Positions 8,555 to 64,000 of a DNA stretch of 64,000 nt are shown here, in pieces (position 1 is the first letter of the stretch; the number at the start of each line of letters is the position of its first letter). The DNA is from a virus. The stretch spans positions 32,001 to 96,000 of the IMG/VR virus record IMGVR_UViG_3300045684_000009, one strand, 5' to 3'. The position numbers were made by a program, and so were the translations under genes. The notes below the pieces were generated by a model. That model was not told the DNA's origin. It did no database searches and saw only the letters and a list, made by a program, of their open reading frames with translations.

Positions 8555-8594
8555 GCTAAAAAGAATACGGTTAAACACATACTAAAACTAAAAA

Positions 8595-9521
8595 ATGTCT
8601 TGTAAGACAAAACTTATATCAGAAGAGTACGAATTTACTTCAAAAGAGGAAAACAACCCTTGTTTTTGTGGAAGATCAAACTGTAAAGATGTATGTTATT
8701 CTTTTGATTACAAAGAGTTAGATGACTTGCAATATTCTATAAAGAATACAGTTTGTAAATTAGGCAGAAAAAAGATAGATAACTTATTTTGGGGGTACGG
8801 TTGTGAAGAAGATATAGATGTAAAAGTAGGTAAACTTAGAATACTAGATCAAGTAGTAGAAAGATACAAGACTGGTATATATTATGAAACGGCTGGTTGT
8901 TTATGCGCGTCTCAATTTCAAGATATAAAAGAACAAGTTATAGATTTGGTAGATGTGATTCCATGTGATATTGATTGTCGATTGGATTTAGGAATATCTG
9001 ATGAAAACTTGGCTCAACATATAATGGATGGTAACACTTGTATATCTTATGATAGATATGAGAAGTTTGCTAAACAATTGTGTCAAGATTTAAATATAAC
9101 ACTGACTAGTACTAAAGAGATTTGCGATTTAACATTATCGTTATCTGCAGATATAATAAGTTGTGACGTTTTGTTTGCAATAAAAGTGTATAAACAAATG
9201 TGCGACCTAGGTTACAGCGTCTCTAGAAATATAGATGAGTGTAAACTTGATTGGACGCTATTGCTAGAAAAAACTGATTGTAATTTAGATTTTGATTTAT
9301 ACAAAGAGTTAATAGATTGTAATTTAAGTTACGATATAATAAAAGAAATATATAGTTGCGGCTTGGAGTTAGAAGTTATTAACAATAACCCCGAACTAGT
9401 AACACCAATAGGTCGATATAAACTTTTTAATCTCGCTGAGAATAAATATGAAATATTGACAAAATACGGATTAGAAACAATATTAAAAGAAGAGGATTTA
9501 ACCTCTGATTACTGTAAATAG
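8595..9521 (+). CDS. Cys-rich structural protein with a 13-aa periodic Cys repeat
   Basis: Seven Cys at exact 39-nt spacing (9123 to 9357). Lies in the virion module. Confidence 0.65.
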   Translation: MSCKTKLISEEYEFTSKEENNPCFCGRSNCKDVCYSFDYKELDDLQYSIKNTVCKLGRKKIDNLFWGYGCEEDIDVKVGKLRILDQVVERYKTGIYYETAGCLCASQFQDIKEQVIDLVDVIPCDIDCRLDLGISDENLAQHIMDGNTCISYDRYEKFAKQLCQDLNITLTSTKEICDLTLSLSADIISCDVLFAIKVYKQMCDLGYSVSRNIDECKLDWTLLLEKTDCNLDFDLYKELIDCNLSYDIIKEIYSCGLELEVINNNPELVTPIGRYKLFNLAENKYEILTKYGLETILKEEDLTSDYCK

Positions 9522-9528
9522 ATAAATT

Positions 9529-12500: not shown

Positions 12501-14589
12501 TCAAGATTCTGAAATCAATGTTTGCGGAAATAACGCAGGTGATATTGTTTACAATACTCCTAATTTGACAGGTGACGTTGTTTATTCAGTGGACGGTGGT
12601 GCGGATTTATTCGAATCAGTATCGTCTGGTTCTGTGAATATAACAATACCTACGGGTGCTCAAACTGTTGTAATAAAAGGTAACTCTTTAGCTAACGCAG
12701 AAGGAGACCAATGTGTAACGTTAACACCTAGTACTTTTAACATCAACTATTTAGATGAACTTGTATCAGGTGCGTTAACGGTATCTGATAATGATATATG
12801 TGAAGGAGAGTCTGTTACACTTACGATAACGGGAGCATCTCCAAGCACATCTGCTATCATAGATGAGATAGCACAAACAATTGAAATAAATGGAAGCGGA
12901 GTGGGTACTTTAGTACTTACACCTGTAGAGGGTGTTCAAACATACACTTATTCTGCACTTCAAGGTGGAGAATGTGATGATTTAGTTGTAGGTCAATCTG
13001 TTTCTGTAACCGTTAATGCGGGTATAGTTGTGGAATCTATAACTACGAATTGTTCTGCTGATTTATCTACATATACTGTAACAGTGGACTTAGGTTCAAA
13101 TGCTGACTCAGTAACTGTAAATGGAAACGCAGTAACACCAGGTTTTGGTTCGATATATAATTGGGACGTACCTTCGGGGAATGTTGCTACTATTATTATA
13201 ACTACTGGAACGTGTGTAATAACTGAAGAGATTTCTGAAGATTGCGAATGTGGGGATGTACCTCAACCAACTGTGTCTCAAACTTCGGTTGATTATTGTT
13301 CAGGAGCAAACCCTGCAGTGAATGTTACATCACCTAGTGGTTCTTTATATAACATCGTAACTACAAATGGTACTGTTACACCACCTATAGACCCTGACAC
13401 TTATGTTGGTGGAGTTTCTATAACGGGAGGTTCAAGTACTACTTTAGATGCAGATGGTTTCCCAGGATGGTATGCTGCGTGGTTAGTAGCCGACGATGGT
13501 TCAGATTGTACTTCAGAACCTGTGTATGTTGAATTTACTGAAATAACACCACCAACAGTTAATATATTAGGTCCATCAACTGTATGTAACAACGAGACAG
13601 GTTCAGTGTCTGCCGTAGTTTCAAATGGTTCAGGAACTTACTCATATGAGTGGTCAACTAATCAAGGTTCGGTAACAGGAAGTAGTTCTAGTGTGAACTT
13701 TGATCCTCAATCTACAATAGGTACAATGACTATCACTGTAATAATTACAGATTTAATAACTGATTGTACAAACACTGCCAATATCAATATTACTCTTGAG
13801 GATTGTACTACTCCTTGTGATGAAGTAACTTTGGAGTTAGGCGATGTTTCTCAAGATTGTCTAAACTATACTGTTGAATGGCCTATATTAGGTGGAATTG
13901 CTCCTTATACAATAGGTTCAGTTACAGGAGGTGTGATAAATGGAAACAACGGTACGAATATAACTTATCCAGCTTGTACTGCAGGTAACTGTATCAGCAT
14001 AGTGGGTGGTGACGTTTTAACTATAGATTTTGCAGAGGCTGAATTAGGTGAAGTATTTGATGGAGGAAGAGTGACAATAGTTGACGATAACGGTTGTGAA
14101 CGAACATTCGTAGTAAATTTCGGAGGATGTTCAATACCTGACTGTGATGTAACATTATCAGGTTCAGGACCGTCAGGGTTGATATTTACAAGTACAGAGT
14201 ATAATGGTGAGGATATATTAATCAATACATTTAACAATTCTCAAGAACTTGTAAATAGTGAACGTTTTGTTATTAAAGTGACTAATGACGGAACAACTAC
14301 TACGTTAGTTGATACAGGGTATACTTATCAGATATATAACGCAGGTGAGTGTCAAGAGGATAATGGTTACCCAATTGTAGATTTAAGTGCTACACCTGTG
14401 GGTACAATTATAAACGGATTATTACCTACGGTTGCCGCAGGTGTCGATGTTGAATTTGAAAGTACGGTGAACACCGAATTGTTGATAACTTACACTACTG
14501 CACCAGGGGATGTGATTACGATCGAGCGTAATGATCCAGGCTGTTCAGGTTTAACTGGGGGGTTTGTATTGAAAGTGACGTGTCCTTAA
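9529..14589 (+). CDS. Giant Cys-rich adhesin-like virion protein (C..D.DC...C..G.C repeats plus tandem Ig-like domains)
   Basis: N-terminal tandem repeats such as CASDEDCPEGFVCLNGRC and CLTSEDCGPNQICIDGEC. C-terminal ICEGESVTLT and PTVNILGPSTVC...SGTYSYEWS Ig-like units. No signal peptide. Confidence 0.7.
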   Translation: MSGVPVTLKIQNVKNGDTPCKNPIVEVVCQQGNLAFPCSRKVKPNGELEIVIPTEAFEQGDSCVTLAVKCEECDRCPAKEVEVCFCDSDTDCKDCQLCIDGICIDQCPEEFCINGVCAECASDEDCPEGFVCLNGRCVCQSGLIDDRGHCVDCLGDEDCGLCEVCIGGDCVPKDCGDQKCDPDTGDCVDCLTSEDCGPNQICIDGECVCKEGFRPDPVTGECVADCFKDSDCGPCEICVGGQCQSRCEEGEKCIDDKCVPWPCNDVACDDGADCGVGCGCVNGECVPCALLGCASPTEFGGCEAANVLGCECNAAGDCVGVTDPCANYACSQDCGNRPDCECVGGKCVSKNCKSDFKLNKEGCSLKATLSSNECCPCGPHTINNRIDNATRLSSQIDVIEGTLFIRKGIQAKVTKEPTGASGLILDSIPLVDDSVAYSVAGNEEPISGKIGIYITYELETPTGSIIEDDTYGPESDNPLVQLDVLSSSEVLWTLNNTVGYVPVGSVINGNTVKSANVTFRVYETIVFLSGCKYEPQYLFRYKVDSPAYFDVATTPISEDVFFHRSTLLVTDNCANPTFFWFRGHESVDGVQFDQLPFRVTYVSKDSTSDFVDIIDSTEINQLHNVNNNIDDHSELWSGHYYKVTTNCGCGSKTVNLESCGSEPGIAVFCDPTEAKVDWQCGSVTFAKDFVTGCPINFNLGNDLDSQNTPFPYASGDPDSSNQSDIHEDAQVYWAIYANGIDIIPDSIQRAKSGSNVDSNGNPIQVIYKENDEYEFDNLSSIVIKWGRCLEKDSNGNCITFQPYKCDECNITLVSNVPPISTPGYDIECIDDGGARSWLVTFKSLQNYPDLASIVFNGVEKPIGNSTEAAFSVGVPQSYDVTFKFNEKCQATEEVVVTANCDCPDVFITSGVDCDNDTTSINLVLSNSLNYSGTYTFTNSSGEVVEVEGDTVSYLDTYVSGYTYTVRFTNAFCDKSNSSTPFLRGSSVIESLQDSEINVCGNNAGDIVYNTPNLTGDVVYSVDGGADLFESVSSGSVNITIPTGAQTVVIKGNSLANAEGDQCVTLTPSTFNINYLDELVSGALTVSDNDICEGESVTLTITGASPSTSAIIDEIAQTIEINGSGVGTLVLTPVEGVQTYTYSALQGGECDDLVVGQSVSVTVNAGIVVESITTNCSADLSTYTVTVDLGSNADSVTVNGNAVTPGFGSIYNWDVPSGNVATIIITTGTCVITEEISEDCECGDVPQPTVSQTSVDYCSGANPAVNVTSPSGSLYNIVTTNGTVTPPIDPDTYVGGVSITGGSSTTLDADGFPGWYAAWLVADDGSDCTSEPVYVEFTEITPPTVNILGPSTVCNNETGSVSAVVSNGSGTYSYEWSTNQGSVTGSSSSVNFDPQSTIGTMTITVIITDLITDCTNTANINITLEDCTTPCDEVTLELGDVSQDCLNYTVEWPILGGIAPYTIGSVTGGVINGNNGTNITYPACTAGNCISIVGGDVLTIDFAEAELGEVFDGGRVTIVDDNGCERTFVVNFGGCSIPDCDVTLSGSGPSGLIFTSTEYNGEDILINTFNNSQELVNSERFVIKVTNDGTTTTLVDTGYTYQIYNAGECQEDNGYPIVDLSATPVGTIINGLLPTVAAGVDVEFESTVNTELLITYTTAPGDVITIERNDPGCSGLTGGFVLKVTCP

Positions 14590-14614
14590 TAGAAATTTAG
14601 AAATATAGTAATAA

Positions 14615-16702
14615 ATGGAAAACTGTACAAACTGTGGGTCTAATTGTTTTGAAAAACCTAATAACTGCATATATCATGCAGGTAAATCAGAAGGTGTTGT
14701 AAAACAAGGAAGTTCACAAGCTATAGTAAATGAAGAACTAGGAAAAGAGCTTAATCGAGTCGCCAATAAGGTGGACTCGTGCTCTTTCTGTTCAGGTGGT
14801 ACATCAAACTCTAGTAGTTCTGATGTTTCTACGAATTCCGTTGTAAACTCTAATCCAATTAGATGCAATGTGGCGGGCAGTTTTTCTGAAACAGCTAAGA
14901 TAAAAGTTGAAACTATACCTGACGCTAATGGTGTCGGTGTAGTATATGATTTAACAGATGCATTACCTGAAGGTAAAGTGATATCATCTAGAACGTGTGT
15001 TGAGGGAAAAGTAGGTGGAGAAGATAGAATACTAACGGAGTCCGATAGTCTACGTTCTTCTTTTTCATTAAAACCTAATCAGTTTCCTGCAACTCTAGAC
15101 GTTAGCACTCGAGTGATGACAGATAGTGGGGAAAAGGTGATAACAGGACGAACTCCTTTGGATTCCAATGGAAAAGCAGATACACCTATTGTAGAAATTA
15201 AATCAATTGGTAGAGATGCTACTAACTTTCAATCTGATGTAAATAAAGTATTTGATGATAAACTTTGTTCTCTAGAGTCTAAAGTAGATTCTGTATATAG
15301 TTCAAGTTTATTTGCGGAGATAGAAGCCTTAAAACTTCAAGTAGCCTCATTACAAACTACATTAGCTAATGTATCGAATCTTAAAGTAACATACCAAGAC
15401 AACTGTGACGATTGTGGTGGTGGAACAACTACAAGCACATTAGGTGCAGCACTTACGAGTATTAACCAAAAGGCTTGTACAAACGCTGCAGGAGTGCTTG
15501 AGAACCGTTCTACGGGTACTTCTCTTACTGATCGATATAATAGTATACCTGTAACCTTAAATGCGTTATCGGGAGCTTACACAACACCTGGCGGTACAAT
15601 TACGTATCCTAATACAACAGGTGGTGGCGGCGGTGGTGGAAGTACAGATGGTAATGGCGGTGATGATGGAGGTACAACTCCTACAACCATTACTTGTCCG
15701 ATAACTATCACATACTATAATAGAAAGAATTGTGGTGGAAATATTTTATCTGAAGTACAGAGTGCATTAACTGCTGAAATAGGAACTATCGACCCTAATT
15801 TTACATTAGTGTGGAAGTCTGACAGATCTGGTACAATATCTACACCTAGCGTGTGTCCTGGAATGAATTTTACAGTAACTTGTGGGGAAAATACATCACC
15901 GCTAATTAGTGCGTTACAAACTACTGTCCCTACTGCTGTACAATCAGCTAGAGACTTTGTTGCATCTAATTGTGAATGTGATGTGGATACTCAAGATACA
16001 GACTGTGGAAACTTCGAAGACTTATATGAAATCATATGTATAGCTCCAGATAAAGTGAGCGTAGTACCTACTTCTGCAGGTTATGTAGTTAGTTGGGGTG
16101 GTAATAAAACAGGTAATCCCTCTTATACTCAGCAGTCAGAGTTTGGTAATCCAGACACTATAGGTTTCAATGACGGACATGGTGATACTATATATTTAGC
16201 ATTTAGAGTGATTAGATTGTCTGATAGCACTGTATGTGGAGAAGGAACTGATGAATTGAATCAAGTTGAATTCTTTGCAAACTGTACAAGTGGTGACGGT
16301 GGCGGCGGTGAAAATGGTTGTATCTATCAGAATATACCTTACGTGGGTAACTTTAATCTATCAAATGGTATTGTAACAATGATATCAGAAGATGGTGGAG
16401 ACATTGCTATAACTGGTAGTGGATTTACGGATTTAATACAAAGTGGTGTACCTACAGAAGTTCCGACTTGGAATCCTACTGTAAGTGCTACAGCTTATGA
16501 TCCTGATAATTGTTTCGCACCTTATTTCTTTGAGATTCATCCTAATGACTTATCTACTGATCTAGTACCAGGCGAAGAACCAGACTGTTGTGCACCAGGA
16601 GAGTCGTGTTGTCAGTACAGTAATGGCTCGTATGATTGTGATGACCCAGCTACATGCGCTGCGGGAGGCGGACAAGCAGCTTCAGATGGAGATTGTTGTT
16701 AA
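14615..16702 (+). CDS. Cys-rich structural protein with coiled coil and Gly/Thr linkers
   Basis: N-terminal CxxC motifs, a heptad segment (EIEALKLQVASLQTTL), poly-Gly linkers and a Cys-rich C-terminus ending CC. Confidence 0.6.
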   Translation: MENCTNCGSNCFEKPNNCIYHAGKSEGVVKQGSSQAIVNEELGKELNRVANKVDSCSFCSGGTSNSSSSDVSTNSVVNSNPIRCNVAGSFSETAKIKVETIPDANGVGVVYDLTDALPEGKVISSRTCVEGKVGGEDRILTESDSLRSSFSLKPNQFPATLDVSTRVMTDSGEKVITGRTPLDSNGKADTPIVEIKSIGRDATNFQSDVNKVFDDKLCSLESKVDSVYSSSLFAEIEALKLQVASLQTTLANVSNLKVTYQDNCDDCGGGTTTSTLGAALTSINQKACTNAAGVLENRSTGTSLTDRYNSIPVTLNALSGAYTTPGGTITYPNTTGGGGGGGSTDGNGGDDGGTTPTTITCPITITYYNRKNCGGNILSEVQSALTAEIGTIDPNFTLVWKSDRSGTISTPSVCPGMNFTVTCGENTSPLISALQTTVPTAVQSARDFVASNCECDVDTQDTDCGNFEDLYEIICIAPDKVSVVPTSAGYVVSWGGNKTGNPSYTQQSEFGNPDTIGFNDGHGDTIYLAFRVIRLSDSTVCGEGTDELNQVEFFANCTSGDGGGGENGCIYQNIPYVGNFNLSNGIVTMISEDGGDIAITGSGFTDLIQSGVPTEVPTWNPTVSATAYDPDNCFAPYFFEIHPNDLSTDLVPGEEPDCCAPGESCCQYSNGSYDCDDPATCAAGGGQAASDGDCC

Positions 16703-50706: not shown

Positions 50707-51534
50707 TTAAAATAGCTCTATAATTTCTAAATTCTTTGGTTGCACTGCGTTCTTACCCCACCCCTTCTCTACCGTAATAGAGAAGTACTTTTCAAACACA
50801 CTATTAGTAGTAAACACTTTGTCAAAATAATCAGTAACAGGGTCTTCTCCTAATCCTTGAACCGTTATATGAGACACTGCTAAATACTTCTTTCCCACAT
50901 TCGCACTATCTAACAATGCAGATAATCCCTTAAAAGTTCCCCCACCAATCGAAATGTCATCAATAATCAACACATCTTTCCCTCCAAAGTCATCAATAGG
51001 TAATTGTTGCTTCAATTTAGTCTTACCATTTACATACGTTCGTACTTTTGAGGCGGATAAAACATCACCTTTCCAACCCAACGTATCCATAGTCTTATTA
51101 ATCCATTTGTAAGCACCTGCGTCAGGAGATAGTATACTTACACTTTCATCAATGTGATCGCCTATACTCTTTAACACCTTATTAACAAAAAGAGTATTAT
51201 CCATAATCTCCACCTTATCACCCATATAAGCCTCCACGACTTCGGGGTTATGTGGGTGGAAGATGACGAAATCAGCATCCATACCATTTAAGAACTTACA
51301 TACTTGCTTTAAACCGCTAGATTCATCATCATTGAATCTCTTATCAGCTTGGCCATCAATTAACCAAGGTATTATGATAGCAGGTCTTTCTGCGTACTTG
51401 TGATTATGTGCATCAACATATTGACCTAACTGCCATAACTCTGCATAGTCTCCTATTCTGTATACTACTTGAGGTTCATCTTCCTCAATCTTCCAATAAG
51501 TAGTACCGTCTGGGTGTGATATTAGTTTATTCAT
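50707..51534 (-). CDS. PRPP-synthetase-like protein (candidate ADPR-PP synthetase Adps of NARP1)
   Basis: IPW....QADKRF, HPH, SPDAGAYK, KVR, IIDDISIGGGTF and LAVSH motifs. Likely start ATG 51534. Confidence 0.85.
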   Translation of the reverse strand: MNKLISHPDGTTYWKIEEDEPQVVYRIGDYAELWQLGQYVDAHNHKYAERPAIIIPWLIDGQADKRFNDDESSGLKQVCKFLNGMDADFVIFHPHNPEVVEAYMGDKVEIMDNTLFVNKVLKSIGDHIDESVSILSPDAGAYKWINKTMDTLGWKGDVLSASKVRTYVNGKTKLKQQLPIDDFGGKDVLIIDDISIGGGTFKGLSALLDSANVGKKYLAVSHITVQGLGEDPVTDYFDKVFTTNSVFEKYFSITVEKGWGKNAVQPKNLEIIELF

Positions 51535-51910
51535 TGCCGTTAATTTTATCGTATACTCGACCCAACATTGAGAGAGCGCCATCTAACCCAGCTCTATCGT
51601 CAAGTAATATGTTGAAATAAGGTTTAGACTCTGTTCCGAACTTAAGATTTGGAATTGCGGGAGTATTAACTCCTACAATATTCAACCCAACTTCCTTACA
51701 ATACCTCTCTATAAATGGATATCTTTCAGGAGCAGAAGCTGTCCAAATAATGATGATCATTTGATCTTGCATTCGTAGTAACTCACCTATTGTAATCATA
51801 CATCTACCCCAACTCGACATTCTATATGGAAATATAGTGTCATCGAAATCTACAGCAACTATTAATTTACCGTGAGTTACCCACTCATCTGTTAATCTCT
51901 GTTCTATCAT
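51527..51910 (-). CDS. Small HAD-superfamily phosphatase
   Basis: IVAVDFDDTI (DxD), IWTA and KPY...LDDRAG motifs. Confidence 0.8.
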   Translation of the reverse strand: MIEQRLTDEWVTHGKLIVAVDFDDTIFPYRMSSWGRCMITIGELLRMQDQMIIIIWTASAPERYPFIERYCKEVGLNIVGVNTPAIPNLKFGTESKPYFNILLDDRAGLDGALSMLGRVYDKINGNE

Positions 51911-53670
51911 AATTGTTCATTTATACGTTGTCTAATAGTATCCAATGACTCGTCAATCAATAACTTACCATCTCTGAATACTTCTTTTAATTCTCCTGCA
52001 TTTTCTACTGACCAAGTGACTCCATCAAAAGCTTTAATCTTGTCATCTTGTCTGCCTACAGATATCAAACCTTTCAAACTCTTCTTATTCATTCCACCCT
52101 TTGTTTTAGGGTCTTTGAATATCTCTTTACCTCTTGTTTCATATTCAACATGTTCTTGGTCCATACTGTGTCTAGGTAGTTTAACTGATTGCTCAATATA
52201 CGTAGCTTTCATAGCAAATCCAAATGTATCTCTAGTATTCATCTGATAAGTATAAGAACCTATACCTAGAACTAGATTGTTAGTAGAGAATCCTTTAGCG
52301 ACTAATCTCTCACATATTTTATTAGCAATAGGAATAGTTACTGAGTCACCATAGATAAGACCTATGTGAGTATCAAGGTGCTTGTACATGTTACCATCGC
52401 TTCCTTCTACTTCTGTTCCTCCAAATGCATCCCACAATACTTCGATTGAGCCTTTGAATTCAGGACTATTTTCTAACTTAGTAAATGTGGACTTATCAGA
52501 ATCTTTACCGTAGTTGTCTATGTAGTAATATTGTTTATCGTATCTATTCCAATCAGGTGAGTATTTAACTGAATATAATTCACCTTTATAACTTATCACC
52601 TTAGTTATATCCCCACCACATTCACCATGAGGCGTATCCTCTCTCAACTCTGTATCTAAATACTCAGTAGCCCATTCCTTAAACTCTTCAAAAGTTTCAG
52701 GCTTGTCAAATCTTTTGTAGATCTTACCACATATCATATCCACAATATCACCCGAGTCAGGGCGAACCACCACTCTACCATCACGAGCCATTATCTCTGC
52801 TTTAAACTCAGTACATAATAAGTTAAGCAATGACCAATAGTCATATGTATCAGCTACTATCGACACTATACCTGTAGGGTATAAGTCCAACATGTGGCGG
52901 ATATAAGCTCTCTCATCACCCTCTCCTTCATAATGTGAAGATGCTACTGAATGCTCACTGGCAGGTACTGAACCTGCGATAAGTCCGTTTGCGTTATAAT
53001 ACTCCTTAGCAGCTAAGAATGCAGGAATAGTGTCTGTACCTGTAAATGATGTTAAATGGGCTAAACCACATACTGACGAGTGTCTACCAAATAAACCTCT
53101 CATTGCAAAACTGTGACCTTGCCAATCAACAAAATCAACAGGAGTTCCCGTTAATCTAGCATATTTCATAAGTATTTGCTTGTATTCTCTAGCTATAGTG
53201 GCGTTAGTCATATATGGCCACAACTCTGCAGAAAACAAAGTCTCTAAATAATTAGTTAACCAAAAGCATTTAGGGTCAGTGTTGTAGACTGTAACTGCAG
53301 GAACGCCTATCGGACACATTGTTCCTTCAGGTAATGCTTTAATTACCAAAGGTAAGTATCCTAAATCGTGCAGGTAACCTATGTGGTCAGCATCGTATTC
53401 TGAACCCATAAATTCTGACATCAATGCTGAATACTCTTCTACCATTAACTCCTTATCTGCGCTGAAGAAGTGGTCTTCAAAGTCTGCAATTAACTTCTTA
53501 AGCACTATCTGAATTCCAAACACCACCACTCCATCAGTGTTGTTACCTTGATAATGTCTGCTTGAGCGTGGAGTCCAATTTGAATATACTAACGTAGTAT
53601 TCTTTGGATACTGAGCTCTGTGTGACAACTTGTAGGCATCAGTTGCGTAAATCGGATTTTCATGTATCAT
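51907..53670 (-). CDS. Nicotinamide phosphoribosyltransferase-like protein (candidate Namat of NARP1)
   Basis: TDAYKLSH..QYP, WLTNYLET, F.GTDT, SVPASEHSV, SIVADTYD, VVRPDSGD, GLIYGDS, GIGSYTYQ..TRDT.GFA.KAT and KDPKT motifs. Confidence 0.92.
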   Translation of the reverse strand: MIHENPIYATDAYKLSHRAQYPKNTTLVYSNWTPRSSRHYQGNNTDGVVVFGIQIVLKKLIADFEDHFFSADKELMVEEYSALMSEFMGSEYDADHIGYLHDLGYLPLVIKALPEGTMCPIGVPAVTVYNTDPKCFWLTNYLETLFSAELWPYMTNATIAREYKQILMKYARLTGTPVDFVDWQGHSFAMRGLFGRHSSVCGLAHLTSFTGTDTIPAFLAAKEYYNANGLIAGSVPASEHSVASSHYEGEGDERAYIRHMLDLYPTGIVSIVADTYDYWSLLNLLCTEFKAEIMARDGRVVVRPDSGDIVDMICGKIYKRFDKPETFEEFKEWATEYLDTELREDTPHGECGGDITKVISYKGELYSVKYSPDWNRYDKQYYYIDNYGKDSDKSTFTKLENSPEFKGSIEVLWDAFGGTEVEGSDGNMYKHLDTHIGLIYGDSVTIPIANKICERLVAKGFSTNNLVLGIGSYTYQMNTRDTFGFAMKATYIEQSVKLPRHSMDQEHVEYETRGKEIFKDPKTKGGMNKKSLKGLISVGRQDDKIKAFDGVTWSVENAGELKEVFRDGKLLIDESLDTIRQRINEQL

Positions 53671-57421: not shown

Positions 57422-58066
57422 TCAATTAGTATTTCGATTGTGATGAGAGTCTAAGAACGCCTCTCTAATATTACAGAAATCTAGGAACTCGTCAATAGTT
57501 ATAGGTCGGTATTCACCAATCGCGTTATATACGTTGTCAATACCTACATCAAATGATTTACCTAACCCCGCATATGAACCATGAACATGACCAAAAGCAT
57601 GAAATGCTCCCTTATGTCCTTGATGCCATATAGCCATAGGATAATGGTTAACAACTATATTGTTCCCTTTGAATTGGATGTATTGAGTGTCGGCTGCAGG
57701 TAACACATTCTCGAAATAGTGTTTGTGTAAACCTTTAGTTCGAATGTTATGATCGTGATTACCATATGTTAGAATGATATTCTTACAGTTCACTCGTTCT
57801 GCAAACTCTAATATTCTATGTGCACCACCAAATGCAACATCACCTGCATGCATTAATACATCGTTCTCCTTTACGTTTTCGTTGATACCTTTAATAATAG
57901 TATCATTCATTTCTTCTAAGGTGTCGAAGTCTCGCACTGAGTTGTCACCTCCATGTTGAGATAAATCCCAACGAGTAGTTCCTCTACATATGTTGTTGTG
58001 TGCGTAATGTGTATCGGAAGTTAACCATAGTTGGTCAAACTTATTTAATGAGTCAAATCTTACCAT
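57422..58066 (-). CDS. Calcineurin-like metallophosphoesterase
   Basis: SDTH, GD, GNHD, HYP and GHVH motifs. Confidence 0.9.
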   Translation of the reverse strand: MVRFDSLNKFDQLWLTSDTHYAHNNICRGTTRWDLSQHGGDNSVRDFDTLEEMNDTIIKGINENVKENDVLMHAGDVAFGGAHRILEFAERVNCKNIILTYGNHDHNIRTKGLHKHYFENVLPAADTQYIQFKGNNIVVNHYPMAIWHQGHKGAFHAFGHVHGSYAGLGKSFDVGIDNVYNAIGEYRPITIDEFLDFCNIREAFLDSHHNRNTN

Positions 58067-58099
58067 TTTACTGATTTTAATTTCTTATTTAATTATTAT

Positions 58100-58291
58100 T
58101 TAATCGCACCAAGGCTCTCCTTTATCTAATTCTCCAAATAATCTGTTAGATAATCTACGAGCCCTGTTAATAACTTCGTCATCTAATAACTCCTTGTTCT
58201 CGTCAATGTATTGTGTTAATGCAACACATATTATAACTACATCTTTATAGTGTAATTTTGTTGTTACTTTTTCATATATGTCGTATCCCAT
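58100..58291 (-). CDS. Hypothetical protein
   Basis: 63-aa ORF coupled to the upstream gene. Confidence 0.45.
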   Translation of the reverse strand: MGYDIYEKVTTKLHYKDVVIICVALTQYIDENKELLDDEVINRARRLSNRLFGELDKGEPWCD

Positions 58292-59025
58292 TACTTCTTA
58301 TTTGTCATTTGTAATTTCCAGCCTTTAGGAAACAGTTGTTTATATATTTCAAAATTCCACATTTGAAGACATTCTAACCACCACAAAGTATCATACGTAT
58401 TGTGGTTAAACATCTTATTCAATTCAGAGTAAACTCTTTCAGTAGATATTACTGAGAAGTCTCCATTGTAATCTTTGATAGCGTCTTCTATCTCATCTGA
58501 CAATTCAAACTCTTTAGTACATGCAAATCTCAATGCTCTCAATATACGTAGAGGGTCATCGTTGAAAGTCACATGAGCGTCAATAGGTGTTTGTAAAATT
58601 CGGTTAGCCAAATCTTCCATCCCACCAAACAAATCAATAATCTCACCATCCTCCGCTTTAGCCATTGCATTAACAGTAAAGTCTCTACGCTCTAAGTCAT
58701 CTCTCAATGTACCTAGTTCAACTATAGGAGTCCTTGTTCCCTCCACATATCCAACTTCTTTTCGGGCAATAACAAAGTCAGCAACACCACTATGAGTATG
58801 GTCATCGGGAAACAAAGCACGAACAGTATAACAATTTTCCGTAACCAAAAAGATTTCATATCCTTGTGTTTCTAAATGTTCAGCAAATTTGCGTGTAACT
58901 GTATTGACATCCCATTTTGTGGGGTCATCTAATACAACCGAATAATCTATATCCTTAGATTGTAATCCTAACAATTGGTCTCTTATCCGACCACCAACCT
59001 CATATAGTGTATATTTCATTACCAA
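58291..59025 (-). CDS. cca: tRNA nucleotidyltransferase (class II CCA-adding enzyme, compact form)
   Basis: VGGRIRD.LLG...KDIDY, flexible loop ARKE.GY...TR.P, DLERRDFTVNAMA, DDPLRILRALRF and STERVYSEL motifs. No HD domain. Confidence 0.88.
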   Translation of the reverse strand: MVMKYTLYEVGGRIRDQLLGLQSKDIDYSVVLDDPTKWDVNTVTRKFAEHLETQGYEIFLVTENCYTVRALFPDDHTHSGVADFVIARKEVGYVEGTRTPIVELGTLRDDLERRDFTVNAMAKAEDGEIIDLFGGMEDLANRILQTPIDAHVTFNDDPLRILRALRFACTKEFELSDEIEDAIKDYNGDFSVISTERVYSELNKMFNHNTYDTLWWLECLQMWNFEIYKQLFPKGWKLQMTNKK

Positions 59026-59270
59026 CTCACTCTAAATGTAATTTCATCGCCAATATTGACTCGCATTTTACCCCTAACCTTGCGCAAATGCTCACAAGCT
59101 TGTTCACATGCCATATCTAAAGGCATATCATCATCTTCTGTAAATCCAACGTATTCTGAAACTGTATGGTTGTAGGTTTCACCGTCATAAAAGTCTAAAT
59201 CCTTCCATAATTCAATTACGTGTGGGGGGAAACCATCTTGAAATATTTCATATATCCTTGTTTGTTTCAT
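59019..59270 (-). CDS. Hypothetical protein
   Basis: Packed ORF. Confidence 0.5.
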   Translation of the reverse strand: MKQTRIYEIFQDGFPPHVIELWKDLDFYDGETYNHTVSEYVGFTEDDDMPLDMACEQACEHLRKVRGKMRVNIGDEITFRVSW

Positions 59271-59626
59271 TATGCTCCTAATTTTAATACATCAGTAAAT
59301 GAAGGTTCGGATATTGAGATATTCCAACTACCCTTAATCTCACCAGCCTTAGTGATAGTCTTCCACATATCTCCATGCTCCTCACCCTCACCCTCTACGA
59401 AGAAGAAGTGGTTGGGGAATAACTTTGAAAGCTCCTTAATATTTGATTCATGATCGTACCATTTCATGTCATCACCAAGTTCACCTAAATCAATACTGTA
59501 CTCAGATATATCTTCTAACCTACGTTCTATTAGGTATGCCTCGTCAGATGTATAATCCAACTTTTCAAATTTACCATTTGTCTTTTCAGTGTAAACGTTT
59601 ACTATAAATCTTGTGTAATATCCCAT
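59270..59626 (-). CDS. Conserved phage protein (MGY.T.F...KWY......S..FP...F...GEGEE.GD.W)
   Basis: Recognisable phage family pattern of unknown function. Confidence 0.6.
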   Translation of the reverse strand: MGYYTRFIVNVYTEKTNGKFEKLDYTSDEAYLIERRLEDISEYSIDLGELGDDMKWYDHESNIKELSKLFPNHFFFVEGEGEEHGDMWKTITKAGEIKGSWNISISEPSFTDVLKLGA

Positions 59627-59627
59627 G

Positions 59628-60173
59628 TTATGCTAATTTAAATTGTTTTAAAAATGTTCTTAAATCGAGAATACTTTCTCCACCCATTTCTGTTAAATAC
59701 TTTTCCCACGCATCTGGAAAATCAAGAGATAAAGCTGTAGGTTCTTGGTCAGATTTATATACACCTTTAGAATCAGGGTCTAACCACTTATTAAAGTCAG
59801 GATACTTATCATAATCCCACACTCTCTCGTCAGCAAGAAATACTACTGCGGTGAGTGCGTCATTTAAGTCTGGCTCATGAAATGTAGCGTGAGGTACGTC
59901 ATTATTAACTAACCAAGCATGCTGCTGATTTAAAGTGCCGATACTAAACCCTTCATCGTCTATTTTACTATTAGTAGTACCACCATTAAGTATAATGAAT
60001 GTTTTATCATCCTCTGCCCATATATTGCAATCATGAACACAGCCCGCATTCAGGCAATCATAATTGTCCATCATATACTCAACAACAGCATGTCCAAACT
60101 GTATACCTTGTTGAATAGGTGAAAGGTTGTACGGTACGAGTCCGTACATTCTGTATTTTAGTTTATCTGTCAT
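59628..60173 (-). CDS. Peptidyl-tRNA hydrolase type 2 (Pth2)-like protein
   Basis: MY.LV...LS..Q.GIQ.GHA, W....KT.I.L and F.EPDL....TAV pattern of the PTH2 fold. Confidence 0.6.
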   Translation of the reverse strand: MTDKLKYRMYGLVPYNLSPIQQGIQFGHAVVEYMMDNYDCLNAGCVHDCNIWAEDDKTFIILNGGTTNSKIDDEGFSIGTLNQQHAWLVNNDVPHATFHEPDLNDALTAVVFLADERVWDYDKYPDFNKWLDPDSKGVYKSDQEPTALSLDFPDAWEKYLTEMGGESILDLRTFLKQFKLA

Positions 60174-61246
60174 AAGTTATCTTTTCTAATTGTTAATAAT
60201 AAATTCTGTGTAAACTTAGGCTTAACCTCGCGAGGTAAATTAGATGCATCAAATGCTGCTTTAATATCGTCAATCATAGACTCAGCATCGTCAAGTAATT
60301 CGTCATACTTCATCTCACCTCTACGGATTTGAAGTAGATATTCTCTCTCAGGTCTACGCACCACAATACCTTTACCATCTGCAATGTCCTTAGACATATT
60401 TAGAAGTCTCATACAATGCATCATGTTTTTGTGGTCGTATCCTTGCTCTCCCTTTAGATTATCTCTATATCTAGCTTCATTCCTATTCTCTAACCATTCA
60501 GTGTATTCTCTATAATCCTTACAATGCATTGAGTATGCATCTACATCAAATCTAAGATACGTTAGGTGACAAGCGTCTTTAGGTATGCTCACAGTTCTAA
60601 CATTGTTAGAATCGTCACCAATAATACCACCATCCCCGTCATCCATGTCGTACATAGAGTATGTATTTGGGATGTTATTAACTTTAGCTAAACCTATATA
60701 CTTTTGAGCAATTATGGGGTCACCTGCCCCATTAATGTCGCACCATTTTTTAAAATTTACAGTGTGTTCGTTGTACATTAATACATAACAAAAATCAAGT
60801 ACATCCTTTCTAGTCATTGCTTTAGCCTCTTGGTTTATTTTCTTATTTAAACCTTTTGCCTTTTGTATTTGAGAGTACGCGTATCCTGTATACGTATGTT
60901 TTAACTTTGTAGTGATGAATTTGGCTCTAGTTTCTTCAGGGAAGTATTTAACCCAATCATCTGTTGTAATACGTACACAGTCGTCGGGTAAATTAAACAA
61001 CTCCTGCATATTAGGATTACCTTTCGATAATAGTTCTATAAATCGACCTATTTCATAATATGTTTCATCGTTGGTGTTGTCGGATATTTGAGGAATATAT
61101 CTACCCGCAAGTACTTCATCTGTGGGTAGAATAAAAACACCCCTCACGTCAACGTCACTACCTTCTACGTTTGTCCCATAAGCATGTGAACCCGATATAC
61201 CTTCGAATATAATGCGCCCCGAAGTTCTTAATTGTTCAATATTCAT
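60170..61246 (-). CDS. Pol-beta superfamily nucleotidyltransferase (RlaP/YcgL-like)
   Basis: GSHAYGT..EGSDVDVRGVF, YEIGRF..LL.KGNPN..E, GYA..Q and YD.KNMMHC.RLL...LL.IRRGE motifs. Confidence 0.88.
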   Translation of the reverse strand: MNIEQLRTSGRIIFEGISGSHAYGTNVEGSDVDVRGVFILPTDEVLAGRYIPQISDNTNDETYYEIGRFIELLSKGNPNMQELFNLPDDCVRITTDDWVKYFPEETRAKFITTKLKHTYTGYAYSQIQKAKGLNKKINQEAKAMTRKDVLDFCYVLMYNEHTVNFKKWCDINGAGDPIIAQKYIGLAKVNNIPNTYSMYDMDDGDGGIIGDDSNNVRTVSIPKDACHLTYLRFDVDAYSMHCKDYREYTEWLENRNEARYRDNLKGEQGYDHKNMMHCMRLLNMSKDIADGKGIVVRRPEREYLLQIRRGEMKYDELLDDAESMIDDIKAAFDASNLPREVKPKFTQNLLLTIRKDNL

Positions 61247-61821
61247 ATTTGTGATTTAAAATAATTTAATGATTTTACAACCCTGGTGTCAAAAACATCT
61301 TCAGATGTATACCGTTTAATTATGTGGTCCACATATTCTGATTTATGACGCTTCCAAGTACTCACAGCTTCTCTTTTTTCTGAAAATACACCGATATGAC
61401 GCTCCAACCCGTCGTGATTCATTCTAACCCTGTATTTACCATTTTTAATAGTTATTCCTGTAGGTAGTTCTCGATTCAGGGATGAGTGAAGATTTAAGCA
61501 GTTATTAACATATCTAGGTATAAATACGCAAACATCAGGGTCGTATCTTTTATTACCTGGCTTCAATAAATCCTTATCTAAATGATACCCATCTATATAG
61601 TTAGAGTCCCACCATTGTTTAAATTTAGAGAACGATAACCATTCCGAACAGACGGAACAATCAACGTATGTGGGATACTTATTGAGAGATTTAGGTGAAT
61701 ATACTCTAAATAATATAGATTTCCAAATTGCATATTCTTTTAATTTAGACACCCCTCCTCCATAGTCATTCATACCTACGCCGTATACCAATCCCATAAT
61801 ATTATAATGTTGATTCTTCAA
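61243..61821 (-). mobile_element. Free-standing HNH-type homing endonuclease with AP2-like DNA-binding domain
   Basis: Y..W..I..R.Y......PTY....VC.EW..FS.F..W, LDKDLL..GNK.Y.P..C.F.P...N and G.F....EA motifs. Confidence 0.8.
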
Positions 61822-62107
61822 TGAATAAATACTCTCCTGAATCTAACCTACGTCTACAGTCATCTAATCCACAGTTTAGAAACTCATTTCTATATTTACC
61901 TGTAGTTCTTGAATAGTTCCAAGCACCTGTCAAGAAAACTGTATCGCTGTTGTCTTTTATAGCGATTATACTATCATATGATTTGAACATACTACCATTA
62001 TCAAATTCGATAATTATTTGCTTTGGTGTTAAGTTGCGACCACGCGTTCGCATGTTCCTAGCACTCTTAAATGTACCTAACGTTTGTACTACTGTTTTAA
62101 GTTTCAT
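61802..62107 (-). CDS. Conserved hypothetical phage protein
   Basis: F.SY.S.IA......L...WNYSRTTGKYRNEFL pattern. Confidence 0.6.
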   Translation of the reverse strand: MKLKTVVQTLGTFKSARNMRTRGRNLTPKQIIIEFDNGSMFKSYDSIIAIKDNSDTVFLTGAWNYSRTTGKYRNEFLNCGLDDCRRRLDSGEYLFIEESTL

Positions 62108-62586
62108 ATTCCATATTTTGAATAGAGCTGTTTAAACTCTAAGTTACCTAATAAAGATTCTAATTGTTTCTGTTGTTTTCTAATTACTTTCCCTCCCACA
62201 CATCTATCTCTATACATATCACGTTCTAAACATTGGTCAACCGAAGTTTTCATTAAAAATATATGAGGGTCGAAGTTAATGTTACCAATTAAAGGTTTAA
62301 GATAAGATATCTTTAAATTAGTAGCATCTATGATAACATTTCTATCTGCACATGTGGCGGAGTCAAGTATGCCATTAATTACATCAGTAACTAATTCTTC
62401 CCTATAACTTATATCTTTAGAGTTATAGTAATCTTTATGTTGATGGTCTTCTAACCCCCACAATGCACTTCTAATACTATCTCTTGATACTATTATAGTG
62501 TGAGAGTGTTCTTTCATCAACCTCTTTGCTTCTGTAGACTTACCTGAACCTGATACGCCTATAAGTATAAACATTTTATTCATCAT
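62104..62586 (-). CDS. Polynucleotide kinase (PseT-like kinase domain only)
   Basis: Walker A GVSGSGKST, SRD.IR, IIDATN and CLERD..R..VG..VI motifs. Confidence 0.85.
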   Translation of the reverse strand: MMNKMFILIGVSGSGKSTEAKRLMKEHSHTIIVSRDSIRSALWGLEDHQHKDYYNSKDISYREELVTDVINGILDSATCADRNVIIDATNLKISYLKPLIGNINFDPHIFLMKTSVDQCLERDMYRDRCVGGKVIRKQQKQLESLLGNLEFKQLYSKYGI

Positions 62587-63386
62587 TCTGATTTTAAATG
62601 TAAGCTAATATATTGTCTTAATTGTTTCATACCAGTTAACTGGCCACCTATTGATATTTCATGATGTAAATTATCAGCATCTAACTTGTCTTTCTCTCTC
62701 TTTCGAATCCTCTTATCAATCCACGCCAATAACTCATCTTTGTTAACAGAACCTGGCGTACTGTAATCTCCCGACTTAGGTGCTAAACTCTTAAACTCAG
62801 AATATTTGTCTTTAAATAATGTATGGTATCTAGCATGTATAACCTCCCACAATTCATTCCTTTCATGTTTATCAGCCAAGATATATAATTCTTCAAGTAA
62901 CCACTTATACCTTGCTGGTTCTACGATGTCACCATGTCTTATTATCTGAATTCCGAAATCAAATATACGAATGGCGTGGAATATAGACTTTATAGCTAAC
63001 ACCTTGTCATAATCTGCAGATACAGTTAACTTCTTATTTCCCTTAACCCACGCACCGTTGGCAACTGTCGAGAACGACTTCCTAAGTTTTCCTAAATCAA
63101 TATCTATAGGTCCATAATTTCGATCACTATCAAGGTATATACATTCAATCGCCCTAACGTCATGAGCGTCAACTGCTGCATCGAAATCAACCTTAGTAAA
63201 TATATGTATTGTAATATTACCTTCATCTATTAGAGAACCGTAATCGGGGTAAGGCTCACCGTCTGCTAATACTAATATGTAGTCATGGTCAGAACCTTTT
63301 CGTTGAGTACCGTAAGTAAATGAGCCAAACTTAAATATAGAATCGAAGTTTAATGTGGATGTTACTTTATCTAATTTATCATGCAT
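62583..63386 (-). CDS. Pol-beta superfamily nucleotidyltransferase
   Basis: FGSFTYGT....SDHDYI, H....IEC and KSIFHAIRI motifs. Confidence 0.8.
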   Translation of the reverse strand: MHDKLDKVTSTLNFDSIFKFGSFTYGTQRKGSDHDYILVLADGEPYPDYGSLIDEGNITIHIFTKVDFDAAVDAHDVRAIECIYLDSDRNYGPIDIDLGKLRKSFSTVANGAWVKGNKKLTVSADYDKVLAIKSIFHAIRIFDFGIQIIRHGDIVEPARYKWLLEELYILADKHERNELWEVIHARYHTLFKDKYSEFKSLAPKSGDYSTPGSVNKDELLAWIDKRIRKREKDKLDADNLHHEISIGGQLTGMKQLRQYISLHLKSE

Positions 63387-64000
63387 ATCTAAATTCTCTT
63401 ATATTATTTGAATCTAATAATTGTTGTAACAACGGATCATCACAATCCTCAATGTAATAGTTTTCTAACTCTCCTTTATTGTACATATCGTTCATGGTCT
63501 TCCTCAAACCATCGTGTCTGTTCTTAAGGCGAACTACCATTTTATGGTTGTTGTTGTATAACTCTATTTGTTTTCTAACGCCCTCCAATGTGGGAAGTTC
63601 ATTCTTTAGTAGACAACTAGCACAGTATAAACCTCTAGCAGCGTGTCCTAACTTCTTATCGTGTTTCCAATTCCTTATATCTCGTTTAGCGAAACCTAAA
63701 TAAGCCTTAATTACTTTGTAAGTTCTTACGTGAGCTAAAGCTGATTCATCTAACAGGCTACCTTTTTTAAATAAAGACCTATTCCACATAATTACATCAC
63801 TGTTTATAGTGGATTCACCCGAGGTTTGATTGCGGGAGAATTGATCCATTGTTGTCCAAATATAATCAGTGTTATCTTCTGTATATTGGAATTGATGAGA
63901 GTTTGGGAACATCCCTAAGTCATCATTCCACGAAGTTGGTGGTCGATAAACACACAATAAATCCAGATCACTATCTCTACTATTAGTTCCATATAACCTA
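63379..64000 (-). CDS. Pol-beta superfamily nucleotidyltransferase (5'-truncated by the window edge)
   Basis: The frame is open to the window end. Manual translation upstream of the called start reads RLYGTNSRDSDLDLLCVY (YGT..SD.D motif). KAYLGFAKRD and HAARGLY follow downstream. Confidence 0.8.
   Translation of the reverse strand, partial: RLYGTNSRDSDLDLLCVYRPPTSWNDDLGMFPNSHQFQYTEDNTDYIWTTMDQFSRNQTSGESTINSDVIMWNRSLFKKGSLLDESALAHVRTYKVIKAYLGFAKRDIRNWKHDKKLGHAARGLYCASCLLKNELPTLEGVRKQIELYNNNHKMVVRLKNRHDGLRKTMNDMYNKGELENYYIEDCDDPLLQQLLDSNNIREFRYA

Follow-up and report, generated by a model that had tools for sequence, protein, structure and literature searches.

The stretch of viral DNA analysed here (the window, 64,000 nucleotides) is positions 32001-96000 of IMG/VR record IMGVR_UViG_3300045684_000009, which is 133,828 bp long and has direct terminal repeats. 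At the end of the window, and running on past it, there is a row of 15 co-directional open reading frames (ORFs) that begins with a predicted RNA ligase gene, ends with a metallophosphoesterase gene and includes three nucleotidyltransferases (NTases), which we call RlaP1, NT2 and NT3. Judged by sequence, these are three separate families with only the RlaP-type catalytic core in common. The gene identities, catalytic motifs and packing of the row and its recurrent neighbourhoods in unrelated phages, from which we infer the enzymatic steps, suggest that this is probably an expanded heal-and-seal operon for tRNAs that host anticodon nucleases and tRNA-end toxins have damaged, with the three RlaP-type enzymes at the fill-in step.

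Arrangement of the gene row

The row is transcribed in the order RNA ligase, AdfN/gp30.3, NT3, NT2, polynucleotide kinase (Pnk), 101-amino acid (aa) ORF, HNH ORF, RlaP1 and PTH2-like protein, followed by the 118-aa and 83-aa ORFs, a CCA-type enzyme, a 63-aa ORF and the metallophosphoesterase. The window holds its downstream two thirds, with twelve ORFs in the region 57422-64000; the sequence upstream was taken from a stretch, L002, that takes in 12 kb past the window end (window coordinate = L002 coordinate + 55,999). From the ligase to the phosphoesterase, neighbouring ORFs overlap by 1-20 nucleotides or are separated by gaps of at most 33 nucleotides. This tight packing is consistent with one transcription unit, and the row is presumably co-transcribed. 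Families were assigned using the Pfam, PHROGs, NCBIfam and PADLOC libraries. ORF calls, Pfam and PHROGs confirm that the components named in the original prediction are all real, tightly packed minus-strand genes at the places given there.

Three nucleotidyltransferase families

RlaP1 is a canonical member of its family. It passes the Pfam RlaP model PF10127 with 69.6 bits (E 4.2e-19) against a gathering threshold of 23 bits, matches phrog_388 (E 4e-50) and has tblastn matches in 1,005 phage records. Its predicted catalytic residues are GS at 19-20 and DVD at 31-33. RlaP1 is related to NrdC.11, which is the T4 representative of the RlaP family (10.64898/2025.12.29.696909).

NT3 in its full length, from its ATG start, also passes PF10127 (28.4 bits, and 25 bits in a six-frame search of the genome). 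There are 86 homologues in the family found, of 192-257 aa, and in an alignment of 30 sequences G24, S25 and D36 are invariant and D38 and D93 nearly so. The stretch RLYGTNSRDSDLD, which had been recognised as NTase sequence by reading past a called start, is real NTase sequence; it does not lie upstream of a mis-called start, as NT3 is an ATG-started ORF of 231 aa that runs off the window.

NT2 scores 18.5 bits with NTP_transf_2, under the cut-off of 21. When 40 members of its family were scanned, NTP_transf_2 was matched by 32, Polbeta by 27 and RlaP by four. An exhaustive profile search of 1.84 billion representatives, with clusters defined at 50% identity, found 1,301 cluster representatives at E<=1e-3, of which 299 reach E<=1e-30. 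Such a search was needed because a word-based protein search yielded only five relatives; a single-protein locus search yielded none. G21, S22, D33, D35 and E81 are invariant in an alignment of 40 sequences. By sequence and model, NT2 is a separate, unnamed Pol-beta family with an RlaP-type core and a HEPN-like helical C-terminal domain. Of the three, RlaP1 and NT3 pass PF10127; NT2 fails the threshold and has a family of its own.

As had been predicted, the three are mutually divergent. BLASTP among them aligns only 15-24 residues of the GS..D.D motif, in the stretch GS..YGT..SD.D (E 0.033 and 3e-4), or finds no match. Profile comparison with hhalign gave 91.6% over 111 columns for NT3 and RlaP1, 93% over 70 columns for NT2 and RlaP1 and 97.4% over 64 columns for NT2 and NT3, the last two alignments covering the catalytic core alone. 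The third acidic residues (E81 in NT2 and D93 in NT3) map to the same aligned region as in RlaP1. The motif residues are invariant in the family alignments and every gene has homologues elsewhere, so this is more than chance.

In the AF2 models of NT3 (pLDDT 92.2) and NT2 (pLDDT 86.5), the NTase domain is of the beta-alpha type and precedes a helical domain. The solved structures closest to the NT3 model are HalB (Z 8.2, root-mean-square deviation (rmsd) 4.0 over 150 residues) and an aminoglycoside adenylyltransferase (Z 6.5). For NT2 they are HalB (Z 9.4, rmsd 4.0 over 164 residues), AAD(9) (Z 8.8) and AadA (8.6). These Z values are middling and nearly tied, and indicate a KNTase-like two-domain architecture and nothing more specific. 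None of the NTases matches a PADLOC model (the 2023 library, which may not include Hailong). Searches of PDB sequences with RlaP1, the RNA ligase and gp30.3 found no match, and the PfRlaP structure was not reached by sequence.

End-healing, sealing and tRNA-end enzymes

The metallophosphoesterase matches PF00149 (E 6e-5, 24 bits against a cut-off of 21.5) and phrog_547 (E 2.5e-43), and the motifs DxH, GD, GNHD and GHxH are found in its translation. It is likely to be the enzyme that heals RNA 3'-phosphate or 2',3'-cyclic-phosphate ends. The kinase matches AAA_33 (E 1.5e-19, 71.1 bits), phrog_505, annotated as polynucleotide kinase (E 3.4e-25), and the NCBIfam model bacter_Pnkp (TIGR04075, E 1.6e-10, over kinase positions 10-145 only). 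It has the P-loop GVSGSGKST and SRDSIR, a Pnkp-like Asp/Arg motif. Pfam finds no fused HAD or phosphoesterase domain in the kinase; the phosphoesterase has a gene of its own, 4 kb downstream.

The original prediction had proposed a search for an RNA ligase beyond 64000, and there is one: a predicted ligase of 458 aa lies just outside the window, two genes upstream of NT3. It matches phrog_968, annotated as RNA ligase (E 3.1e-56), and, far under the cut-off, TIGR02306 RNA_lig_DRB0094 (E 1.5e-4). The motifs KLHG, EGVVV and FKHK are present in its translation. In L017, L104 and L070 there are relatives that do reach the Pfam cut-off, with the PHA02142 OB domain. The ligase gene overlaps the gp30.3/AdfN gene by 4 nucleotides; the latter (PF08010, E 3.2e-49, 166.7 bits against a cut-off of 36) overlaps NT3 by 1 nucleotide. 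Approximately 10 kb further upstream there is a Thg1-like gene (PF04446, E 1.2e-26, 93.6 bits against 29.2; phrog_4717, E 1.8e-76). This Thg1-like 3'-5' NTase is the fifth predicted RNA-end nucleotidyltransferase of the phage.

The CCA-type enzyme matches PolyA_pol (PF01743, E 9.9e-19), PolyA_pol_RNAbd (E 3.2e-6) and, end to end over a profile of 245 positions, phrog_24229, annotated as tRNA nucleotidyltransferase (E 4e-65). The motifs GGRIRD, DID, RRD and DDPLR are found in its head domain, and presumably these correspond to the class II CCA head motifs GGxxRD, DxD, RRD and (E/D)DxxR. The best NCBIfam CCA equivalog gives 121 bits against a cut-off of 438.8, over profile positions 27-219 of 466. 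As the protein is short and under the equivalog cut-off, we class it as a short NTase of the CCA/poly(A) polymerase family for which CCA addition is unproven. A similar short form is found in L009; tRNA binding by such a form would be without body and tail domains.

The label of the 181-aa PTH2-like protein is the weakest among the named components. The protein has no Pfam match, and PDB sequences gave no match to its family at E<=10. The family is abundant in phages (3,196 homologues) and has many invariant polar residues. An ESM Atlas model compared with archaeal and eukaryotic PTH2 clusters gives TM scores of 0.52-0.53 by query and at most 0.74 by target over 112-115 residues, and in the viral clusters related to the model PF01981 (PTH2) is present in 11-21% of members. 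In Pectobacterium phage PcCB7V (Vequintavirinae) a homologue annotated as peptidyl-tRNA hydrolase lies between a full-length CCA enzyme and an RlaP homologue, and in coliphage W70 and Cronobacter phage CR9 the PTH2-like and RlaP matches are ~1-1.4 kb apart. This suggests that the protein is a candidate peptidyl-tRNA hydrolase by fold, with a link to tRNA that comes from gene context; the function is unproven.

In the pathway we propose, the phosphoesterase would take off a 2',3'-cyclic or 3'-phosphate and the kinase would add a phosphate to the 5'-OH. One of the three RlaP-type NTases would put back the one or two nucleotides cut away from the 3'-OH end of the 5' fragment and the ATP-dependent ligase would close the break. 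The CCA-type enzyme would restore 3' ends, the Thg1-like enzyme encoded further upstream would restore 5' ends and the PTH2-fold protein might free peptidyl groups from broken tRNAs. RlaP1, NT2 and NT3 are thus all predicted to extend RNA 3'-OH ends of cleaved tRNA, and there may be a division of labour among them by nucleotide or by tRNA substrate.

Neighbourhoods in other phages

We analysed 19 viral loci with relatives of NT3 and the best 80 of 107 confirmed loci with relatives of NT2 (L-numbers denote contig stretches). Loci whose anchor proteins were at least 95% identical were merged, leaving 17 NT3 loci and 72 NT2 loci. The ORFs of each locus were searched with profiles of the window proteins and of recurrent neighbour clusters, which were named by Pfam on one representative.

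In 13 of the 17 loci a repair-type gene lies no more than 3 kb from NT3, and in 11 of them a Pnk, an RNA ligase or a phosphoesterase lies within that distance (RNA ligase in seven, Pnk in eight and phosphoesterase in six). In L009 the order is DNA polymerase, ligase, NT3, Pnk, phosphoesterase, CCA and RlaP, which is the order of the window minus NT2. L029, a complete phage of 138.6 kb with direct terminal repeats, has Rnl1, NT2, NT3 and a Pnkp with kinase and HAD domains in a run with overlapping ends. There is a reverse-transcriptase gene (13937-14911; RVT_1, E 1.5e-16) 1.7 kb downstream of this run. NT2 and NT3 are adjacent or near each other in three other non-redundant contigs (L028, L029 and L014/L035).

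In Bacillus phage PBC2 the NT2-like gp154 is followed, after two genes, by an RNA ligase and a polynucleotide kinase; the phage has no PF10127 match above the cut-off. In L091 (9905-12928) an NT2-type gene, a 229-aa RlaP and a 352-aa RlaP1-like gene stand in a row, followed by an Acb1 anti-CBASS gene (PF23474, E 1.4e-34). The three types of NTase are also all present in Vibrio phage 2.275.O, scattered through a 30-kb region with NAD-salvage genes, ClpP, PhoH and tRNAs. Each of the three NTase families adjoins RNA ligase or Pnk genes in unrelated phages. The co-occurrence with RNA-healing genes that the original prediction called for is thus seen elsewhere, with NT3, Pnk, phosphoesterase and RNA ligase side by side in other phage contigs.

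NT2 and NAD+-salvage genes

A NAMPT-like gene abuts or overlaps the start of NT2 in at least seven loci (L042, L104, L083, L033, L036, L040 and L046), which fall into two types of cassette. The first, in L033, L036, L040, L046 and L083 (at ~8,200-12,500 in each), has the order NAMPT, NT2-family NTase and ADP-ribosylglycohydrolase (ARH). In L040 there is an NMNAT/Nudix gene before it and a UvrD-like helicase and a true PTH2 after it. The second type, in L042 (6981-11569) and L104 (7085-10546), has a Prs-like gene, a small ORF (DUF1937 in L104), a NAMPT-like gene and NT2, and in L042 an HD_4 (RelA/SpoT-type HD) gene follows. An RNA ligase is also found in the same stretch in L042, L104 and L070. 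The window's own phage has a Prs-like/NAMPT-like pair 9 kb from the island that resembles the phage NAD+ reconstitution pathway NARP1 (Adps + Namat).

In the accessible literature, this repeated adjacency of NT2 to phage NAD+-salvage genes is unreported. The terms 'nucleotidyltransferase' and 'RNA ligase' are absent from the NARP preprint, and 'nucleotidyltransferase' from the aRES preprint. The accessible literature on RlaP with RNA ligase likewise gave no account of NAMPT-NT2 adjacency or of three RlaP-type paralogues in a row.

We considered whether NT2 is the missing NMNAT of the phage, as a search of its genome for NMNAT (PF01467) found no match. This is weakened by the canonical NMNATs that lie beside NAMPT-NT2 in L040, L046 and L034, so that NT2 is not needed there as an NMNAT; PF01467 was matched in four of the five complete NAMPT-NT2 records.

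Evaluation of the alternatives

Several results weigh against the proposed repair operon. NT2 has no PF10127 match at E<=0.1, nor at E<=1 in a search of its own genome, and the best E among the 4/40 family members that touch PF10127 is 2e-4. As it is below the threshold, NT2 is RlaP-like in action at best and is not counted as an RlaP member. It is only moderately linked to repair: of the 72 loci, 15 have a repair-type gene at a distance of up to 3 kb, 20 at up to 5 kb and 29 at up to 10 kb. Among its neighbours inside 3 kb, NAMPT-like genes come first (9/72), followed by ADP-ribosylglycohydrolase (7/72), RNA ligase (6/72) and PARP-like genes (4/72). Such neighbourhood counts are descriptive, since there is no random-gene baseline for phages of this kind. 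When 50 of the 72 non-redundant NT2-bearing records were searched for ligases, 25 of those searched had a completeness of at least 90%, and 24 of these have a PF09414 ligase and the last a PF09511 ligase, but a count of 25/25 is not discriminating because RNA ligases are common in large phages.

The other components and the layout add to these points. The RNA ligase scores 20.7 bits with Pfam RNA_ligase, below the cut-off of 27, and is below the NCBIfam cut-off too. The CCA-type enzyme consists of a head and a neck and has no body and tail domains of the full-length enzymes; of the label 'CCA-adding enzyme', the family head domain and its motifs stand, while the body and tail and the equivalog score fall away. 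PF01981 has no match at E<=1 in the PTH2-like protein and 33 members of its family and none at E<=10 in the genome, and hhalign of the family profile with the true PTH2 from L040 gives a probability of 0.12%. As all the sequence tests for PTH2 failed, the name 'Pth2-like' that had been given to it is kept for its fold match in the ESM Atlas only. AdfN removes ADP-ribose from DNA, and its presence inside the row means that adjacency alone is not a shared pathway. Scans of the region for promoter and terminator consensus sequences were at chance level (63 found against 63.2 expected and 6 against 4.4). Finally, the original prediction had proposed a search for tRNA genes as well, and neither the window nor L002 has any. 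The repair-kit reading of the original prediction is thus favoured by its context (the ligase, the Thg1-like gene ~10 kb on and the recurring neighbours) and qualified by AdfN in the row and by the moderate link of NT2.

Alternatively, the row could be a general counter-defence island of independently acting genes, in which NT2 belongs with NAD+/ADP-ribose counter-defence rather than RNA repair, for example as an accessory adenylyltransferase that re-joins NMN (nicotinamide mononucleotide) or ADP-ribose-derived pieces. The rank of NAMPT-like genes among the neighbours of NT2, often abutting its start, argues for this, as do the two contexts in which they occur (NMNAT/Nudix-NAMPT-NT2-ARH in L040; Prs-like, small ORF, NAMPT-like and NT2 in L042 and L104), the Prs-like and NAMPT-like pair in the phage itself, which is without a PF01467 NMNAT, and AdfN within the row. 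Additionally, a 2026 preprint describes accessory enzymes recruited by NARP1 operons, and mentions defences whose cleavage of NAD+ to AMP and NMN is beyond reversal by NARP1. However, the canonical NMNATs beside or near NAMPT in three loci and in four of the five complete records argue the other way, in L029 NT2 is placed between Rnl1 and NT3/Pnkp and in PBC2 it is close to a ligase and a Pnk, an RNA ligase shares the stretch in L042, L104 and L070, and the catalytic core of NT2 is RlaP-like. We consider this, the main alternative, unlikely. It is more doubtful still that NT2 is the founding Pol-beta-fold accessory enzyme of phage NAD+ reconstitution, and not a tRNA fill-in enzyme, using ATP to re-adenylylate NMN, ribose-phosphate or ADP-ribose derivatives. 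If it were, NT2, encoded immediately after Namat/Nampt in many phages, would recycle products that the two-enzyme NARP pathways cannot, and counter-defence would reach hosts that cleave NAD+ at the pyrophosphate bond. In a milder novel reading, RlaP1, NT2 and NT3 would be nucleotide- or tRNA-specific fill-in enzymes that jointly overcome the poor base choice reported for cellular RlaP.

The remaining alternatives concern the activity of the NTases. The original prediction also raised protein modification and decoy nucleotides, for which there is no positive evidence past generic fold resemblance. The best PDB sequence match of the NT2 profile is the MntA antitoxin (E 0.0037-0.0047) and its C-terminal domain aligns with HEPN-domain chains (Z 7.5-7.9), which would fit an MNT-type protein adenylyltransferase that AMPylates host HEPN-type RNase toxins as MntA does HepT. 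The MntA E-values are marginal and reflect the generic NTase motif only, the HEPN Z values are in a range common for helical bundles, PADLOC found no match and the characterised RlaPs did not label Escherichia coli proteins (10.64898/2025.12.29.696909), so that such a role for one or more of the NTases is very unlikely. Similarly, HalB is the top structural match of both the NT2 and NT3 models, and either or both might act like Hailong HalB in making template-free oligonucleotides as decoys or signals. This is highly improbable: the Z values are within ~1 of those of aminoglycoside NTases, in the middling range, the NT2 profile matches the HalB sequence with E 0.053, the PADLOC negative applies here too (with its limit for Hailong), and the neighbours are ligase and Pnk or NAD genes, not membrane effectors. 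The lack of any pairwise identity among the three NTases outside the motif could also mean that the extra copies are redundant or decaying paralogues without a role of their own. We give this equally little credence, as each has its own conserved family with invariant catalytic residues, the models of NT3 and NT2 are confident and the NT2-NT3 adjacency is repeated in other contigs.

Comparison with known systems

Phage RNA-repair kits have been described by Iyer, Anantharaman, Krishnan, Burroughs and Aravind (2021; PMC7824862, section 3.4.9). According to that section, they combine an RNA ligase, Pnk, phosphoesterases, 'one or more' NTases (RlaP, CCA, Thg1) and PTH2, with a calcineurin-like phosphoesterase in 'a small number' of phages. 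The role proposed for the kits of jumbo phages is to undo the cutting of tRNAs by the host's immunity, and RlaP is predicted to restore nucleotides removed by RloC-type nucleases ahead of ligation (PMC7824862). The claim that enzymes such as these, side by side, are not explained by known pathways was therefore too strong, given these kits and the RlaP activity reported in 10.64898/2025.12.29.696909. The parts list is the same here as in the section cited. In contrast with the jumbo-phage kits, the parts here are in one compact row in a non-jumbo phage of 134 kb with two tRNA genes, the kinase and phosphatase are separate genes, and there are three mutually unalignable RlaP-type NTases where the cited section has one, although Figure 7a or the supplements of PMC7824862 may list phages with several RlaPs. 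The heal-and-seal type of kit is thus already known and the compact triple-NTase arrangement is new.

The RlaPs of Pseudomonas, PfRlaP and PaRlaP, are reported in a 2025 preprint to attach one or two nucleoside monophosphates to RNA 3'-OH ends with little specificity for the nucleoside triphosphate, to favour the 5' half of a cleaved-tRNA mimic and to be inactive on DNA and proteins (10.64898/2025.12.29.696909). In the same report, RlaP partly rescues aminoacylation of a tRNA without one anticodon-loop nucleotide, the authors expect the wrong base in most repair products, and the PfRlaP crystal has an N-terminal NTase domain and a C-terminal helical domain that form a cleft. RlaP1, NT2 and NT3 have in common with PfRlaP, PaRlaP and NrdC.11, as described there, the core of GS, DxD and a third carboxylate and the proximity to an RNA ligase, and the models of NT2 and NT3 suggest a similar two-domain plan. 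The Pseudomonas enzymes are single-copy in RtcB-RtcA operons in that account, whereas here three divergent paralogues lie beside a 5'-phosphate-type ligase and NT2 is outside PF10127.

The heal-and-seal logic is also that of T4, where Pnkp and Rnl1 repair PrrC-cleaved tRNA-Lys through a 3'-phosphatase, a 5'-kinase and a ligase. In L029, NT2 and NT3 have Rnl1 on one side and, on the other, a Pnkp in which kinase and HAD are fused. The phage of the window, in contrast, has a stand-alone kinase, a calcineurin-type phosphoesterase and a predicted ligase like PHROG 968 and DRB0094 with an N-terminal extension, and neither Rnl1 nor a HAD-fused Pnkp. In the bacterial Pnkp of the Clostridium thermocellum type, a kinase, a calcineurin-like phosphoesterase and a ligase-like domain form one polypeptide of 850 aa. 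The two healing chemistries (P-loop kinase and metallophosphoesterase) are common to both, but are carried here by separate genes for 160 and 214 aa. T4 Pnkp with Rnl1 is cited as the founding case in PMC7824862.

Two further systems differ more. AdfN, the NADAR protein gp30.3 of T4, strips ADP-ribose from DNA and defeats DarTG1 according to 10.1101/2024.07.11.602962 and PMC11125620. In the row, PF08010 is matched by the gene that separates the ligase from NT3; AdfN is not an RNA-repair enzyme and so the row mixes counter-defence functions. Hailong HalB (PDB 9dbh/9dbj; PMC13434031) is the best structural match of the NT2 and NT3 models, but the sequence relation is not significant and the gene neighbours are different.

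Other features of the row and of the phage

The coordinates are given in Table 1. The match of the HNH ORF, located between the kinase and RlaP1, to the 420-position phrog_953 profile is confined to positions 191-382. By its sequence it is probably a homing-endonuclease-type insert outside the pathway, either truncated or a relic with DNA binding only. Upstream of the RNA ligase there are three small ORFs and then a DNA polymerase.

Table 1. Features of the gene row and associated genes of the phage (window coordinates)
Feature	Position	Strand	Evidence
Prs-like (291 aa), 127-aa ORF and NAMPT-like (587 aa)	50707-53670	-	phrog_619 E 3.5e-31; phrog_448 E 3.8e-170
Metallophosphoesterase, calcineurin-type, 214 aa, last gene of the row	57422..58066	-	PF00149, phrog_547
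63-aa ORF	58100..58291	-	ORF call; no Pfam or PHROG match
CCA-adding/poly(A) polymerase family class II NTase, 244 aa	58291..59025	-	PolyA_pol, PolyA_pol_RNAbd, phrog_24229
83-aa ORF	59019..59270	-	ORF call; no Pfam or PHROG match
118-aa protein, PHROG family 6306	59270..59626	-	phrog_6306 E 6.6e-17
PTH2-like-fold candidate, 181 aa	59628..60173	-	phrog_3668 'hydrolase' E 4.7e-21
RlaP1, canonical RlaP, 358 aa	60170..61246	-	PF10127, phrog_388
HNH-endonuclease-family ORF, 192 aa, TTG start	61243..61821	-	phrog_953 E 1.2e-61
101-aa protein, PHROG family 21575	61802..62107	-	phrog_21575 E 3.6e-15
Polynucleotide 5'-kinase type, stand-alone P-loop, 160 aa	62104..62586	-	AAA_33, phrog_505, bacter_Pnkp
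NT2, Pol-beta NTase, 267 aa	62583..63386	-	phrog_388 E 5.5e-9; NTP_transf_2 below cut-off
NT3, short RlaP-family NTase, 231 aa	63379..64074 (74 nucleotides past window end)	-	PF10127
gp30.3/AdfN-type NADAR gene	64074-64526 (L002 8075-8527)	-	PF08010
Thg1-like NTase	73945-74766 (L002 17946-18767)	-	PF04446, phrog_4717

The minus strand holds every substantial ORF from ~39,700 to the end of the window, and the GC skew changes sign at ~40 kb. Between 44072 and 55041 on the same strand there is a block of nucleotide-metabolism and DNA-modification genes, with class II RNR (ribonucleotide reductase)-like, MazG, C5-cytosine methylase and PolB-exonuclease-like genes and a gene for a protein of 296 aa whose N-terminal domain is of the dATP/dGTP diphosphohydrolase type (PF18909, E 3.8e-23). 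These genes hint that the DNA may be modified. On the plus strand, from 9529 to 39111, there are very large ORFs of 1686, 695, 1760, 1165, 933 and 2213 aa. For nearly all of them PHROGs gave no match; one matches a 'virion structural protein' family, and the scans of these ORFs gave tail and virion matches only.

The whole record has two tRNA genes, Met(CAT) and Gln(TTG), at 9775-9848 and 111431-111502 of the genome, both distant from the island. A phage of 134 kb thus combines a very rich predicted set of tRNA-repair genes with two tRNA genes only. A DNA-level search of the region against a phage collection found no match. The search of sequencing runs found DNA matches to the record in sediment metagenomes only, and listed no RNA sequencing runs carrying it.

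Significance

Two sizeable NTase families that are named generically or not at all in the libraries have been delimited, NT2 with ~1,300 clusters at 50% identity and NT3 with at least 86 proteins. The compact row is a ready construct for counter-defence assays in laboratory strains. RlaP activity has been demonstrated only in the 2025 preprint, according to which an RlaP with little choice of nucleotide mostly mis-repairs (10.64898/2025.12.29.696909). The row of three NTases, together with the Rnl1-NT2-NT3-Pnkp cassette, offers a test of whether phages overcome this lack of specificity by dividing the labour among paralogues.

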